Positions 3,445 to 46,505 of a DNA stretch of 50,014 bases are shown here, one piece after another (the first letter of the stretch is position 1; each line of letters begins with the position of its first letter). The translations under genes were made by a program, and so were the position numbers. The notes under the pieces were generated by a model. That model was given only the letters and a program-made list of their open reading frames with translations. It had not been told where the DNA came from and did not search any database. The stretch lies in the IMG/VR virus record IMGVR_UViG_3300036801_000108, positions 1 through 50,014 of that record; one strand, 5' to 3'. This stretch comes from a virus. Its lineage: Duplodnaviria; Caudoviricetes.

Positions 3445-4567
3445 TTTGGAGTCCCCAACGCTGTTCCGCAAATGGGCTGCGATCTTCACCATCGCAGCGG
3501 CTATGGAGATGAAGTGTTGGCTTCAAACATCCAGCCCGCTTTATCCTAACCTCTATGTCTTTATCGTGGGCCACCCAGGCGTAGGAAAGAATCGGATCAT
3601 CCGCGTGGCGAAGCGATATATGGGAGAGATTCATGAGTTTCACTTTGCACCGACTTCGCTTACTGGAGCGTCCTTGGTGGACACTCTCGCTGCTAGTAAA
3701 CGATTCATCGCTCGCTTACCAGACCCACCGCTTGAATATTTTAACACTACCATCACCGCAGAAGAGCTTACTGCTTTCATGCACAAGTATGACGACGAGA
3801 TGGTGGGGCTACTCAGCGCGTTCTACGACCCAGACCCTTACGCTCAATCGCGACGAGGTCGAGATATTAAGATCAAGATCGATCGCCCACAAGTCAACCT
3901 GATCTCCGGCACCACCCCCAGCAATCTAATCGGTCTTATGCCCGAGTCCGCATGGGATCAAGGCTTTACCTCCCGCGTTATCTTAGTACACTCGGACGAA
4001 CGGATCGTTGGCGATGACTTTGCCGGGACCTCGCGCGAGATGGATACCTCGCTGGTTAATGATATCAAAATGATAGGAGCGTTAAGTGGGGAGTTCAAGG
4101 TCACCGAAGACTATCGTAATGCGGTTAACAATTGGCGGGCGCTGGGTGAGCCCCCTGTCGTCAACCATCCAAAGCTTCTACACTATAAAACGCGAAGGCG
4201 CGTACACTTGTATAAGCTTTCAATGGTTTCGGCTGCGGACCGAAGTGACGTACTTCTCCTCACGAAGGAGGATTTCAATCGGGCTATGGGTTGGCTACTC
4301 GAAGCCGAATGCTTTATGCCTGATATTTTCACCGCAGGCAGTACAGGAACGGATGCTCGCGCGATCGACGAAATCGCCCACTTCATCAGCGTGAGCGATA
4401 AGGGCGAAGGCGTTCCCGAGAACCGAATCGTGAACTTTGCCCGAGCCCGAGTGCCGATGCATTCGATCCTGCGCGTGATCGATATCATGGTGGCGAGTGG
4501 GCAGATTAGCAGCCGAGGCATCGACAAGCACGGGCTGCGATGGTTCCGTGCTGTGCGTCGGGATTAA
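3296..4567 (+). CDS. DUF3987-like P-loop NTPase, probable replicative helicase
   Basis: PNLYVFIVGHPGVGKN Walker A, AEEL Walker B-like, GFTSR, C-terminal wHTH-like region; follows PolA; start uncertain. Confidence 0.7.
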   Translation: MTARSAGIKGNMMHDRTRMGSAITKPGTKGASGSRKLGSWIESFVEHTDNLESPTLFRKWAAIFTIAAAMEMKCWLQTSSPLYPNLYVFIVGHPGVGKNRIIRVAKRYMGEIHEFHFAPTSLTGASLVDTLAASKRFIARLPDPPLEYFNTTITAEELTAFMHKYDDEMVGLLSAFYDPDPYAQSRRGRDIKIKIDRPQVNLISGTTPSNLIGLMPESAWDQGFTSRVILVHSDERIVGDDFAGTSREMDTSLVNDIKMIGALSGEFKVTEDYRNAVNNWRALGEPPVVNHPKLLHYKTRRRVHLYKLSMVSAADRSDVLLLTKEDFNRAMGWLLEAECFMPDIFTAGSTGTDARAIDEIAHFISVSDKGEGVPENRIVNFARARVPMHSILRVIDIMVASGQISSRGIDKHGLRWFRAVRRD

Positions 4568-37882: not shown

Positions 37883-37918
37883 GTTCGCAGTTCGTTCCGG
37901 GTTCGTTCGCAACGGTTC
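37883..37918. promoter_or_regulatory. Overlapping GTTC-N7-GTTC boxes (alphaproteobacterial LexA-type)
   Basis: GTTC at 37883, 37894, 37905 and at 37890, 37901 (11-bp period), plus one at 37915. Confidence 0.55.
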
Positions 37919-37920
37919 GC

Positions 37921-37950
37921 TTGCAATGCTGCGGTGCGGTGTGCAATAAT
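37921..37950 (+). promoter_or_regulatory. Sigma70 promoter
   Basis: TTGCAA-N18-AATAAT, 27 nt upstream of ORF 37978. Confidence 0.5.
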
Positions 37951-37977
37951 GGGCGGTGAAGCAGGGAGCACAGGCCA

Positions 37978-38199
37978 ATGATTAAAGCTGAAACCCTACC
38001 ATATACTGCAATGGTCGATGGTCTTGGTGTTGTCCATATCTATCGTAATGAGAATGGTAGGATTGCGGTTGATATCAATGGCAAGATTGCATGGACATAT
38101 ATGGTTGGGTTAGAGCAGACCTTGTGGTATGTAAATGAGGATATTCGGCGCTGGCGATACGTCAATTCCTTTAGCAAGCCTTGCGGCGAAGCCCTCTAG
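37978..38199 (+). CDS. Early hypothetical protein
   Basis: GGGAG RBS; 73 aa. Confidence 0.65.
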   Translation: MIKAETLPYTAMVDGLGVVHIYRNENGRIAVDINGKIAWTYMVGLEQTLWYVNEDIRRWRYVNSFSKPCGEAL

Positions 38200-38205
38200 C
38201 AGAAG

Positions 38206-38418
38206 GTGATGGTGATGAAACTCCCAAAGGGACTGACTGTGGACACAGTAATTGACGCAGCCAAGCGTCAGATGTTCGGCTTGGACAATCCGGGCTTCTG
38301 TCTTGCTTGTGGCTATGAACAGGATGGTTGTGAGCCCGATGCTATGGGTTATGAATGTGAGGAATGCGGTGAGCCTAAGGTTATGGGTGCTGCCGAATTG
38401 GCTATGTGTCTTGCCTAA
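38206..38418 (+). CDS. Small zinc-finger protein
   Basis: GFCLACG..DGCEPDA...CEECG. Confidence 0.8.
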   Translation: MMVMKLPKGLTVDTVIDAAKRQMFGLDNPGFCLACGYEQDGCEPDAMGYECEECGEPKVMGAAELAMCLA

Positions 38419-38419
38419 A

Positions 38420-38478
38420 GGTCGAAACCCAAGGCTAATCCCTTGGGTCTGCCAGTGATGCTGGTACTGATGATGACC
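38420..38478 (+). ncRNA. Hammerhead ribozyme, type II
   Basis: GGUC-GAAA, stem III CCCAAGG/CCUUGGG, GUC cleavage triplet, stem I UGCCAG/CUGGUA, CUGAUGA-U-GACC; complete catalytic core. Confidence 0.9.
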
Positions 38479-38549
38479 ACTAGGCCGCCCACCTCAACGG
38501 CCTAGCGTGGGCTATCTCCCACGGGCTGTTTGAAACGATGTAAGACTAT

Positions 38550-38683
38550 GGGATTGTATCGGCGGAGGCAGAGTGCTAGTTCGCTCCTAGCATTGCCGCT
38601 ATAGTGTGGAGCGTGCACTATAGATAGGCTAAAGTGATTGGCTAAGAACCAGTTGCTGTGTCTGCCTCCACCCGTGCAATCCC
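38550..38683 (+). ncRNA. Structured RNA domain with a multi-way junction and kissing loops
   Basis: Closing stem 38550-72/38661-83, three internal hairpins, complementary loops CGCUC and GAGCG. Confidence 0.6.
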
Positions 38684-38898
38684 GCACGACCAATATGCCA
38701 CGATCCAAGACCGATGGGGCCTAGGGGCTCTGCCCTTGCCAACGCAATGGTAGCGACTGCCGCGAAGCGTTCACGCCTAGCAATAGTCCAAAGACCACTG
38801 CCGAAGCTCGGCCAACCCTTGCGACCGCCATAACCATCAGTGACTACCTTGGCATATACCCCGGTGGCAATCCCGCCACCACAAAGAGGACTGTAGTT

Positions 38899-39585
38899 AT
38901 GACAGACCTAGCGACTGATGTTGCGGCCGACGCCGCGGTACCCTCCACTGACATCACCTTTGCCCTTAAAAACGGCGCAGGCGAGTTCACGGTCAATACC
39001 TTACGGCTCCCAATCGACGTATACCGCGAAGCCCTCATGCAGGGCCTCAAGGCCATCGCCGAACGCAACATGAGCAAGCTTACCAAAGCTGCATTCCCCG
39101 AGGACAACGCTGACGGCACCAAGCGCAAAGCCGCTATCCGTGCCAAGGCCGAGGCCAACATCGAGGACATGTACTCCGGTAAGACCAAGATCACCGGCCA
39201 GTCTAAGGCCAAAAAGGCCGGTGGGAATAAGGAAGTGGTCGCCGAAGCCATGCGGCTGGCGCGAAACCTCGTCAAGGACGCAATCAAAGCGGCCAAGGGC
39301 AAGATTTCGCACTACAAGGCTTCGGAAATCACCGAGGGCGCCAAGCAGCTTATCGCTGCCGATCCCTCGATCTTGGAGACAGCCAAGGCCAATCTCGAAG
39401 CGCGGGCAGCGACCCCGGTGAAGCTCAACGTCATGAGCGTCATCAAGGCCGATCCCAAGCTGGTGGCCGAGGACGAAGCCAAGAAGGCCAAGGCCAAGGC
39501 GGACAAGCCCCTTAGCGCAAAGCAGGCCGGTAAGGTCGCGCCGAGGGCAAAGGGCTCGAAGCCGCAGCCGCAGGCTAACGCCTAA
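38899..39585 (+). CDS. Lys/Ala-rich basic protein (possible nucleic-acid binder)
   Basis: AGAGGA RBS; 228 aa; strongly biased codons; K/A-rich tail. Confidence 0.8.
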   Translation: MTDLATDVAADAAVPSTDITFALKNGAGEFTVNTLRLPIDVYREALMQGLKAIAERNMSKLTKAAFPEDNADGTKRKAAIRAKAEANIEDMYSGKTKITGQSKAKKAGGNKEVVAEAMRLARNLVKDAIKAAKGKISHYKASEITEGAKQLIAADPSILETAKANLEARAATPVKLNVMSVIKADPKLVAEDEAKKAKAKADKPLSAKQAGKVAPRAKGSKPQPQANA

Positions 39586-39869
39586 CGGAACGTCCATCGT
39601 GACTAAACTAGCCGAGTAATTGGAACCTAGGGTACGCAAGACGGAGCCCCCGCTCCTGATCTACCCTCTGACAACAGCCAAGGATCGGCTAGTTCTCCTT
39701 CCAACACCCATCCAGAGTTAACAGCTTTAGTATGGAATGGGACTAAAAAGCTGATTATGACGACCCAACTCTCCCCCAAGGGCACCCGGCGGTATATCCG
39801 CGCTGGCCCCTTGGGCTTCTTCCAGCAACGATGTGAGCAAGTGCCAGCATTGCTAGGCCATAGGCCCAC

Positions 39870-44845: not shown

Positions 44846-45078
44846 CCGAACCCTTCTCCACCATCGGCGGAATCGCCACCAAAGACGAAGCCTACCGCAA
44901 ACTAATGCACCACATTGAAGAAGCCATCAACCAATGCCTCGCCATCGGCCATTTCTACAACACCGAAGACGACAACACCTCGCGCCTGATCGCCAAGGGC
45001 TGGTACGGGATCGGCAACGAATTGCTGCCAAGGTTCAAGGAACAGGTTCGGCAACTCGCAATGAGGAGGGCGAATTGA
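44842..45078 (+). CDS. Small hypothetical protein
   Basis: 78 aa, ATGA-coupled. Confidence 0.65.
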   Translation: MTEPFSTIGGIATKDEAYRKLMHHIEEAINQCLAIGHFYNTEDDNTSRLIAKGWYGIGNELLPRFKEQVRQLAMRRAN

Positions 45079-46505
45079 CCCCAACCCCCGAACAATTCGC
45101 CATCCTCGATCACTGCACTACCAAGGACCATCCCAACCTCATGATCAACGCCTTAGCAGGCACAGGCAAATCCGCAACGCTCAAGCTAATCGATCAAGTC
45201 CATCGAACCAAGCCCGCGCTCTATCTCGTATTCAACAAACGTAACCAACTCGAAGCCATTGAGGCCCAAAAGGCCGGCGACTTCGCCTCAACCACCACGA
45301 TCAAAACCTTCAACTCCCTCGGGCACGGCATCTGGGCCAAGGCCATTGCCCACGATATCCACCTCGACAAGTCCAAATCCCGAACCCTCTGGCGCGAGAT
45401 GATCGACGAGATGTCCCGCGCCGATGCCAATGCCGCGTGGAAGGAATATTCCGTGGTGATGGATGGAATGGAGAAGGCTAAGGCCTTAGGCTATGTGCCT
45501 AAGTCGGTCAAGCTTCCACACCAATCCCTAATCGATCACACCGCGCTCCACCACGCAATGGATGAAAGGCCTAACGAATATGCCGGAGAACTCATTGATC
45601 AACTGCTCAAGGCCTCGATCACCAAGGCTTACTCCGGCCTTATTGATTTCAACGATCAGATTTACATGCCCGCATTGTTTGGAGGAACATTCCCAAAGTT
45701 TCCCCGCGTCATGGTTGACGAGTACCAAGATCAATCGCCGGTTAACCATGCGCTGCTCCAACGTCTCGTCAAAGGTCGTCTTATTGGAGTTGGCGATCCA
45801 TATCAAAACATCTATGGCTTCCGCGGGGCCAAGTCGGGAGGGATGTCCTCGGCAATCGACACTTACTCCATGACCCAACTCCCACTCTCCATATCCTTCC
45901 GCTGCCCATCCGCCATCGTCGAAGCAGCCCGCTGGCGCGTCCCCCACTTCCAATGGTCCAAACGCGGAGGCAATGTCAGTGTGGCCAACACCTACAACGG
46001 TTGCGATTTCCCTGACGATAGCACTATTATCTGTCGCAACAATGCACCATTGCTTCGATTGGCCTTTAAGCTTATCTCAGCAGGTCGCTCTGTTAGCGTT
46101 GTCGGTAGCGAACTTGGTCCTCGTCTGGTCGCTATCATGAAGAAACTCGGCGATGCCACTATGCCGCGCGCGCGCTTGTTCACCGAAATCGAATCATGGC
46201 GCGAGGCCCGCCTAATCGCGGGCTCCAAATCCGCCAACGACCTCGCCGACTGCATGCGGGTCTTCGCTGAACACGGCGACACTCTATCCTCTGCCATTTC
46301 CTACGCCGAACACATCTTCGCTCAATCCGGCACCATTCGCCTGCTCACCGGACACAAGGCCAAGGGGCTAGAATTCGAAAACGTCTTCTGGCTCGATCGG
46401 CGCCTGTGCGGTGACAACGAGCAAGACCTTAATCTCCAATACGTCATCACCACCCGCAGCCAACATTCGCTCACCGAGCTTGACTCCTCTAGCATAGTGT
46501 GGTAA
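45075..46505 (+). CDS. UvrD/Rep-family SF1 helicase
   Basis: TTG start after GAGGAGG; ALAGTGKS, VDEYQD, VGDPYQNIYGFRGA, SFRCP, HKAKGLEF. Confidence 0.92.
   Translation: MTPTPEQFAILDHCTTKDHPNLMINALAGTGKSATLKLIDQVHRTKPALYLVFNKRNQLEAIEAQKAGDFASTTTIKTFNSLGHGIWAKAIAHDIHLDKSKSRTLWREMIDEMSRADANAAWKEYSVVMDGMEKAKALGYVPKSVKLPHQSLIDHTALHHAMDERPNEYAGELIDQLLKASITKAYSGLIDFNDQIYMPALFGGTFPKFPRVMVDEYQDQSPVNHALLQRLVKGRLIGVGDPYQNIYGFRGAKSGGMSSAIDTYSMTQLPLSISFRCPSAIVEAARWRVPHFQWSKRGGNVSVANTYNGCDFPDDSTIICRNNAPLLRLAFKLISAGRSVSVVGSELGPRLVAIMKKLGDATMPRARLFTEIESWREARLIAGSKSANDLADCMRVFAEHGDTLSSAISYAEHIFAQSGTIRLLTGHKAKGLEFENVFWLDRRLCGDNEQDLNLQYVITTRSQHSLTELDSSSIVW

Follow-up and report, generated by a model that had tools for sequence, protein, structure and literature searches.

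What does a self-cleaving RNA do between two neighbouring genes of a phage, and is the motif that suggests it a real ribozyme at all? The question is raised by a 59-nt element at positions 38420-38478 on the plus strand of the Caudoviricetes virus record IMGVR_UViG_3300036801_000108. The window, that is the whole stretch of DNA analysed here, is the full 50,014-base record, which has direct terminal repeats and is rated complete. Within its plus-strand early/replication gene block the element lies in a gap of 480 nt between an open reading frame (ORF) of 70 amino acids (aa), which is zinc-ribbon-like, and an ORF of 228 aa; it begins 1 nt past the TAA stop codon of the former. A first-pass annotation, made from the letters, had taken it for a complete type II hammerhead ribozyme that cuts the early transcript and thereby defines the 5' end of a structured RNA that follows. 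We conclude that the hammerhead identity is strongly supported and, with a probability of about 0.72, that the ribozyme belongs to a viral subfamily of type II hammerheads and serves as an intercistronic processing or insulating element of the early transcript, its cleavage being predicted.

Identity of the element

On base-by-base reading, every coordinate that had been given for the complete core proves correct. All parts of a hammerhead core are present (C3-A9, G12 A13 A14, the A15.1-U16.1 pair and a non-G at position 17), and the topology is that of type II, with stem II open and stems I and III capped by loops. The layout is listed below in hammerhead numbering. Conservation refers to 13 related copies, the window's included, and in some lines to a wider viral sample; both are described further on, and all counts for the wider sample, here and throughout, are counts among the matches listed.

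38419, plus strand: unpaired A on the 5' side of stem II (position -1); conserved as A in all 13 related and 110 of 120 wider copies
38420-38423, plus strand: stem II strand 11.4-11.1, GGUC, paired with 38475-38478; two of the four stem II pairs covary in the relatives
38424-38426, plus strand: core G12 A13 A14, invariant in 13 of 13 related copies
38427-38448, plus strand: stem III, 38427-38434 with 38441-38448 (A15.1-U16.1 plus 7 bp), loop 38435-38440; five of six modelled pairs with compensatory changes
38449-38450, plus strand: C17 and the predicted scissile bond C38449/U38450; C17 in 13 of 13 related and 116 of 120 wider copies
38450-38466, plus strand: stem I, 38450-38455 (UGCCAG) with 38461-38466 (CUGGUA), pentaloop UGAUG at 38456-38460; six of six pairs with compensatory changes
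38467-38473, plus strand: core C3 U4 G5 A6 U7 G8 A9 (CUGAUGA); CUGANGA invariant in 13 of 13 related copies
38474, plus strand: additional U separating A9 from G10.1; an insertion relative to the Rfam model and to the covariance model R1 (see below)
38475-38478, plus strand: stem II strand 10.1-10.4, GACC, paired with GGUC
38479, plus strand: unpaired A on the 3' side of stem II (position +1); an A in 12 of 13 related and 84 of 120 wider copies

The GAAA of the core spans 38424-38427, and its final A (A15.1) is the partner of U38448 (U16.1). The 7-bp part of stem III consists of CCCAAGG and CCUUGGG (38428-38434 with 38441-38447), and the GUC triplet lies at 38447-38449. On the far side of the junction the extra U38474 stands between A9 and G10.1, and G38475 and C38423 (G10.1-C11.1) are able to pair. 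The same extra U is found in two copies from other viral loci (L052:3772-3824 and L082:2244-2302; L numbers are our handles for loci) and hence in three of the 13 related copies, that of the window included.

The minimum free energy (MFE) fold of 38415-38485 is exactly the expected three-way junction (-26.2 kcal/mol, z -3.5), and none of 200 shuffled sequences is as stable. A descriptor of our own asked for three stems around the hammerhead core, with the A15.1-U16.1 pair and any base but G at position 17. The real window contains a single match, whose stems measure 8, 7 and 4 bp. Both strands of 200 windows of 50 kb, simulated by a Markov model with the same dinucleotide composition, gave two loose matches and none with stems of at least 6, 6 and 4 bp. 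The local fold also contains three extra pairs, CUA/UAG (38415-38417 with 38481-38483), that lengthen stem II past the flanking As and use two bases of the stop codon.

The identification is carried above all by comparison with relatives. Related loci were collected through the helicase (46 loci) and through an alignment of the 228-aa protein (80 kept of 92). The descriptor found type II hammerheads in L012, in L038 and, as two copies, in L052, and the four syntenic copies were used, with the window excluded, to build R1. Run over both strands of 740 kb, this model gives the window element 44.8 bits and an E-value of 3.5e-10; the highest score outside the member copies is 15 bits. On the second locus set R1 recovered more hammerhead copies, which brought the collection to 13 distinct sequences from the window and 11 other contigs. 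A second model, R2, scores the window at 57.3 bits, with the window among its 13 training sequences, and its search of 172 sources brought up no further hammerheads. By R1, R2 and Rfam alike there is a single hammerhead in the whole 50-kb genome.

Across the 13 related copies all 208 of 208 pair cells hold standard pairs, and compensatory changes occur at 13 of 16 pairs, so distributed that all three stems are supported. The covariation score is 0.949 versus 0.192 in shuffles, a value reached by none of 500, and it is at most 0.150 when the partners are slid by 1-3 columns; fitting the alignment to the model biases it towards paired columns, yet the compensatory changes can be read directly from the raw rows. 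With the full core, the right topology, the R1 score and covariation in three stems, the type II identity that had been proposed is borne out. There is therefore strong support for the statement that 38420-38478 encodes a genuine type II hammerhead, for which self-cleavage is predicted.

The window's copy and its 12 relatives have in common a 4-bp stem II, a 6-bp stem I and a pentaloop with U as its first base and G as its last. How widespread this form is can be seen from the wider sample, for which viral contigs were scanned with a sequence pattern (at least 120 stretches) and 80 loci (L173-L252) were checked by the descriptor. There are 120 verified copies, 118 of them distinct, in 72 of the 80 loci. 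Stem II measures 4 bp in 108 of the 120 and the stem I hairpin 17 nt in 98, with a loop that starts with U; two to nine copies occur together in 21 of the 72 loci. By these sequence features the window ribozyme is an ordinary member of a very common viral subfamily, marked by a 4-bp stem II and by having no pseudoknot between loop I and the tail. It is thus one more among thousands of phage hammerheads, whose role is still called open in reviews (PMC6155905, PMC6765202).

Placement after stop codons and predicted action

All related copies lie on the same strand as their flanking genes. Where an upstream ORF of 30 aa or more is called, its stop codon is close by: the distance to the ribozyme start is at most 5 nt for eight of the 13 copies and 23 nt for a ninth. 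The remaining four, one of which is situated at a contig end, have no called upstream ORF of this size. The fit can be very tight. The stop codon includes the first base of stem II in L012 and L116, and in L052 each of two copies starts on the base after the stop of successive genes, the next start codon with its ribosome-binding site following 14-25 nt further on. The wider sample shows the same geometry: 113 of its copies have an upstream ORF of at least 50 aa, and 77 of these start between -3 and +5 nt from the upstream stop, 84 within 10 nt, while the next ORF starts 11-50 nt past the ribozyme in 59. The feature common to the related copies is their placement directly after a stop codon, rather than any downstream RNA.

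These observations suggest a simple course of events. During polycistronic transcription the 59-nt element would fold locally and cut itself between C38449 and U38450. The upstream zinc-ribbon message would then end about 30 nt past its stop codon, with the stem III hairpin and a 2',3'-cyclic phosphate, and the downstream RNA, with the structured leader and the 228-aa gene, would have a 5'-OH where the stem I hairpin begins. Stability and translation of the upstream unit may in this way become independent of those of the downstream one. On this account the 5' end of the leader RNA would be a local by-product of the cut and not its conserved purpose.

Synthetic biology offers a useful analogy. 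Insulators of the RiboJ type have a hammerhead in front of a cistron; its cut detaches the RNA that lies upstream, and the remaining message starts at a fixed 5'-OH end that bears a hairpin. The window ribozyme may work in a similar manner, with the effect on expression suggested by the analogy; RiboJ itself was engineered from a satellite-RNA ribozyme and has no evolutionary relation to it.

Natural precedents are closer. Prophage hammerheads that flank genes have been proposed, though never proven, to process transcripts into gene-length mRNAs (Perreault 2011, PMC3088659; reviews PMC6155905 and PMC6765202). In one bacterium, in vivo cleavage has been demonstrated for three type II hammerheads located close to phage-like genes (PMC8782182). 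The window ribozyme resembles the clustered prophage hammerheads (PMC3088659, PMC6155905) in lying between small non-conserved genes and in the role proposed, and L052 and L082 show the gene-flanking arrangement itself. It differs from them in that the window has one copy, whose downstream neighbour is a long structured leader and not the start of a gene. Another parallel is the hammerhead of the haloviruses HF1/HF2, located upstream of an early helicase operon and so likewise in a viral early polycistronic unit, where a transcript 5' end has been mapped no more than 3 nt from the cut (PMC3088659). However, the halovirus ribozyme belongs to an archaeal virus, has a variant core and is followed after 13 nt by a start codon, whereas that of the window has the standard core with one insertion and lies 421 nt before the next start.

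The stop-codon geometry, together with the flanking As, gives the idea of gene-length mRNA processing a concrete and testable form. We did not find this abutment stated in the papers searched: the term "stop codon" occurs 0 times in the main text of PMC3088659, whose supplements may already hold the observation, and a full-text search for the abutment returned only unrelated papers.

Points against and rival readings

Several observations weigh against a working processing element. The Rfam scan of the window at gathering thresholds lists nothing, and a permissive scan finds Hammerhead_II over the full model length at 23.3 bits versus a cut-off of 37. The corresponding E-value is 0.025 for the 601 nt searched and 5e-4 for the 50-kb genome, and sub-threshold matches at E up to 10 are also obtained in 11 of 14 control genomes. 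On Rfam scores alone the hammerhead identity would stay undecided. Moreover, no consistent complementarity for a loop I-tail pseudoknot is present in the window or in the 12 related copies. The type II consensus combines a very short stem II with this pseudoknot, which has 4 or more bp, is found in the majority of type II ribozymes and is one on which rapid cleavage by the consensus ribozyme critically depends (PMC3088659). In the MFE fold of the entire 482-nt intergenic region GGUC pairs with a distant partner instead of GACC, and correct folding of the ribozyme would then depend on co-transcriptional order. As to function, the abutment to stop codons may in part mirror how tightly phage genes are packed, and in the wider sample it was measured with mechanical ORF calls on copies selected by sequence pattern. 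Finally, a hammerhead lies within about 1.1 kb upstream of the 228-aa gene in only 10 of the 80 loci that have this gene, which makes the ribozyme dispensable for this phage group.

The low Rfam score has an explanation in the model itself. The Hammerhead_II gathering score is passed by only three of 25 descriptor-verified copies in 11 loci (L012, L052, L038, L116, L070, L077, L068, L082, L127, L176, L194) and by none of the 11 copies of close relatives. The threshold therefore misses the whole subfamily with a 4-bp stem II, and the window scores low because the Rfam model under-detects it. The lack of a covariance-model hit, which the first-pass annotation had named as a ground for giving up the ribozyme, is formally what Rfam returned, while the model of the relatives gives 44.8 bits; since Rfam misses clear relatives too, the failed Rfam check should not count as a refutation. 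The consequence reaches beyond this locus, as annotation pipelines under-count ribozymes that the Rfam type II model systematically misses. With the type II hammerheads of Rfam RF02276 the window ribozyme shares the catalytic core, the circular permutation, C17 and the sense-strand phage intergenic site; it departs from them in a stem II of 4 bp versus 2 modelled pairs, the extra U after A9, the pseudoknot that was not found and the 23.3 bits. The loop I-tail pseudoknot is a common feature of type II hammerheads, not a defining one.

The same shortcomings could be read as signs of a chance motif or of a decayed, inactive relic, killed by the extra U and the missing pseudoknot, and the sub-threshold Rfam score, the single core insertion and the patchy distribution fit such a view. 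We consider it very improbable, given that all core bases are intact, that no strict match arises in the 200 simulated windows and that the independent family model R1 recognizes the element at E 3.5e-10. The insertion speaks the same language, since the U recurs in three of 13 copies that are otherwise well paired. An extra residue at A9/G10.1 is tolerated in the (+) hammerhead of Chrysanthemum chlorotic mottle viroid, where replacing the natural extra A by U increased the rate 3-4 fold (PMC3705267, summarising De la Pena and Flores 2001). The position in the core is the same in both ribozymes; that of the viroid is type III with a natural A and an engineered U, whereas the window has a natural U that recurs in its relatives. 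Still further from what we would expect is a role as one end of an excised or circularised RNA bounded by two flanking ribozymes, as in retrozymes or viroid-like RNAs. Tandem copies do exist in L052 (218 nt apart) and L082, and at least two copies occur in 21 of 72 wider loci, but the 50-kb genome holds only one hammerhead, the Rfam gathering scan finds no other known ribozyme family in the window, and the work covered by PMC3088659 detected neither spliced nor circular products from clusters of prophage hammerheads, so this arrangement is barely conceivable here.

Two other readings accept an active ribozyme and differ on what it is for. It could be a dedicated maturation ribozyme, selected to make the exact 5' end of the structured RNA at 38480-38898. 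The structure and conservation of the following RNA are genuine, its first conserved motif in the window comes 46 nt after the end of the ribozyme, RNA motifs stand 11-220 nt after seven of the 13 copies (window, L012, L038, L115, L070, L077, L068), and the ten loci with a hammerhead upstream of the 228-aa gene can be added. But the association is loose in both directions. The structured RNA occurs in 23 distinct related loci, of which seven have a hammerhead upstream and 16 have none in the 2.5 kb upstream, and six of the 13 related hammerheads precede ordinary genes without structured RNA (two each in L052 and L082, one each in L116 and L127). The distance to the motif varies over the range just given, and the ribozymes of the wider sample usually lie 11-50 nt before a gene start. 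Dedicated maturation is therefore rather unlikely, if still worth keeping in mind. Of the earlier claim that the ribozyme cuts the early transcript and defines the 5' end of the following RNA, one part stands, in that the RNA is real and structured and the predicted cut would set its 5' end here; the 16 RNA loci without hammerhead and the six hammerheads without RNA speak against making this its general purpose. The other reading refines that of an intercistronic processing element and does not exclude it. With the element starting 1 nt past the stop codon, a terminating ribosome would cover the GGUC, the GAAA and the 5' strand of stem III and could gate the cut, so that folding and cleavage would follow from the presence and frequency of translation of the upstream gene. 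The starts between -3 and +5 nt from the stop in 77 of 113 wider copies, the eight of 13 related copies within 5 nt and the overlap of stop codon and stem II in L012 and L116 are in keeping with it. Nevertheless, compact phage genomes can explain the spacing, and the conserved A at -1 suits a structural role within the ribozyme, which leaves translational gating a doubtful, distinctly improbable addition. Intercistronic processing or insulation of the early transcript thus remains the reading we prefer.

The downstream RNA and the genome setting

What kind of RNA would the cut release? The 482-nt intergenic region folds at z -4.5, parts of it are conserved at the DNA level among relatives, and neither the gathering nor the permissive Rfam scan gives a match for 38480-38898. 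Its features, with the gene that follows, are these.

38480-38533, plus strand: hairpins 38480-38487/38498-38505 and 38506-38511/38518-38523, then GGCUGUUUGA at 38524-38533 (from the fold)
38549-38683, plus strand: long-range helix of 38549-38581 with about 38654-38683, enclosing three hairpins (from the fold and the relatives)
38673-38689, plus strand: invariant 17-mer CGUGCAAUCCCGCACGA, for which a local hairpin with loop AAUCCC is also possible; exact in 36 IMG/VR stretches
about 38718-38850, plus strand: second long-range helix, CUAGGGG region with CCCUUGCGA region (RNAalifold on 17 relatives)
38863-38880, plus strand: second hairpin with an AAUCCC loop, its stem GGUGGC/GCCACC, separated by 5 nt from the ribosome-binding site that serves the 228-aa gene; exact GCAAUCCCGC at 38867-38876
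38886-39585, plus strand: GAGGA ribosome-binding site (38886-38890), then the 228-aa gene, ATG at 38899 (ORF list and sequence context in relatives)

The exact sequence GGCUGUUUGA occurs in the window only at 38524-38533; the hairpin and this motif recur in 10 further loci (9 distinct), with stems that covary as judged by eye. The first long-range helix, conserved in its outer and covarying in its inner part, is present in 20 of 22 distinct relatives. A 14-mer core of the 17-mer is exact in 27 of 81 sources, and variants of the AAUCCC hairpin have compensatory stems, with a flanking stem of at least 4 bp in 45 of 149 distinct contexts. In the second long-range helix, six of nine long-range pairs are changed on both sides. 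Comparative sequence data thus indicate that the RNA after the ribozyme is genuine, structured, conserved and supported by covariation, and it has no Rfam family. Because it always precedes the 228-aa gene, it is likely to be the leader of this gene. The locus holds, in the intercistronic niche of the ribozyme, an RNA that is more novel than the ribozyme next to it.

Simpler identities for parts of this RNA were considered and rejected. The small ORFs in the intergenic RNA of relatives start with TTG and have no common frame or protein. A sigma-70 -35 box at GGCUGUUUGA lacks a properly spaced -10 box in 11 sequences inspected by eye, and a promoter scan stays at chance level. The 17-mer is not a repeated promoter of this phage either, its exact 10-mer core occurring at two sites only, both in this intergenic region; matches to the core with one mismatch number 7 in the window versus 6.85 expected. 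Replacement of the hammerhead by another known ribozyme in the relatives is not supported: the Rfam gathering scan of eight loci yields tRNAs only, and a permissive scan of L022:3600-4400 gives no credible family. Relatives without a hammerhead do have in common a hairpin-rich stretch upstream of GGCUGUUUGA (L022 at about 3690-3760, L024 at about 2830-2885, L018 at about 3850-3895), made up of a stem with the sequence CCGGGC, a hairpin within it and ACCCGGCUUGAG.

Between the genes of another phage, in L169:128-5127 (minus strand), the 17-mer element is present five times in a compact version of about 70 nt. These copies start at or beside a stop codon with a variable, covarying hairpin, followed by the 17-mer; their last part is a small hairpin that contains the ribosome-binding site, just upstream of a start codon. 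Single compact copies occur at L149:5827-5920, L157:15-108 (minus strand), L166:9502-9595 and L144:8971-9064, and four of the 12 newly inspected stretches (L140, L153, L156 and L171, the first two being identical in sequence) resemble chance matches within coding sequence. The compact copies have no Rfam family match. As the compact element fills the same intercistronic niche as the hammerheads, it is a candidate processing site or new ribozyme. That the RNA behind the window ribozyme belongs to a new intercistronic class of RNA processing, either as a candidate self-cleaving motif or as a target of a phage or host endonuclease, is a tentative and on balance unlikely proposal; if true, the hammerhead and the 17-mer element would together mature the message of the 228-aa gene in the window.

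In the genome as a whole, long minus-strand ORFs occupy about 6.6-35.6 kb, and a block of plus-strand ORFs extends from about 36.6 kb to the end of the window, with a UvrD-like helicase gene at 44934-46505. The cistron upstream of the ribozyme is the following.

38206-38418, plus strand: 70-aa ORF with a CxxC...CxxC pattern, zinc-ribbon-like (ORF list and translation); stop codon TAA at 38416-38418

This ORF matches no Pfam or PHROG family. Nine distant viral contigs encode a relative of the zinc-ribbon protein, and none has a hammerhead downstream of or next to that gene; the ribozyme therefore does not travel with it. For the 228-aa protein, Pfam, PHROG, PDB and Atlas give no family or function lead. 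As a single query it finds no relative among viral contigs, whereas the alignment query finds homologues in 92 viral stretches. A blastn search of 37900-39600 against 50,697 phage records is without match, and between the two genes of the window no promoter-like or terminator-like site rises above chance.

There is no tRNA anywhere in the window. In relatives, a tRNA gene is located in the same plus-strand block, 3' of the 228-aa homologue (L012:8543-8614, L013:5737-5809, L018:5192-5267, L022:7533-7604). Two related viral contigs have, about 800 nt upstream of the homologue of the zinc-ribbon gene, an 83-nt match to both ends of the tmRNA model (L004:2114-2196 and L005:2114-2196; 59.5 bits versus a cut-off of 47), which corresponds to the tRNA-like domain only, the middle 302 model positions being replaced by 9 nt.

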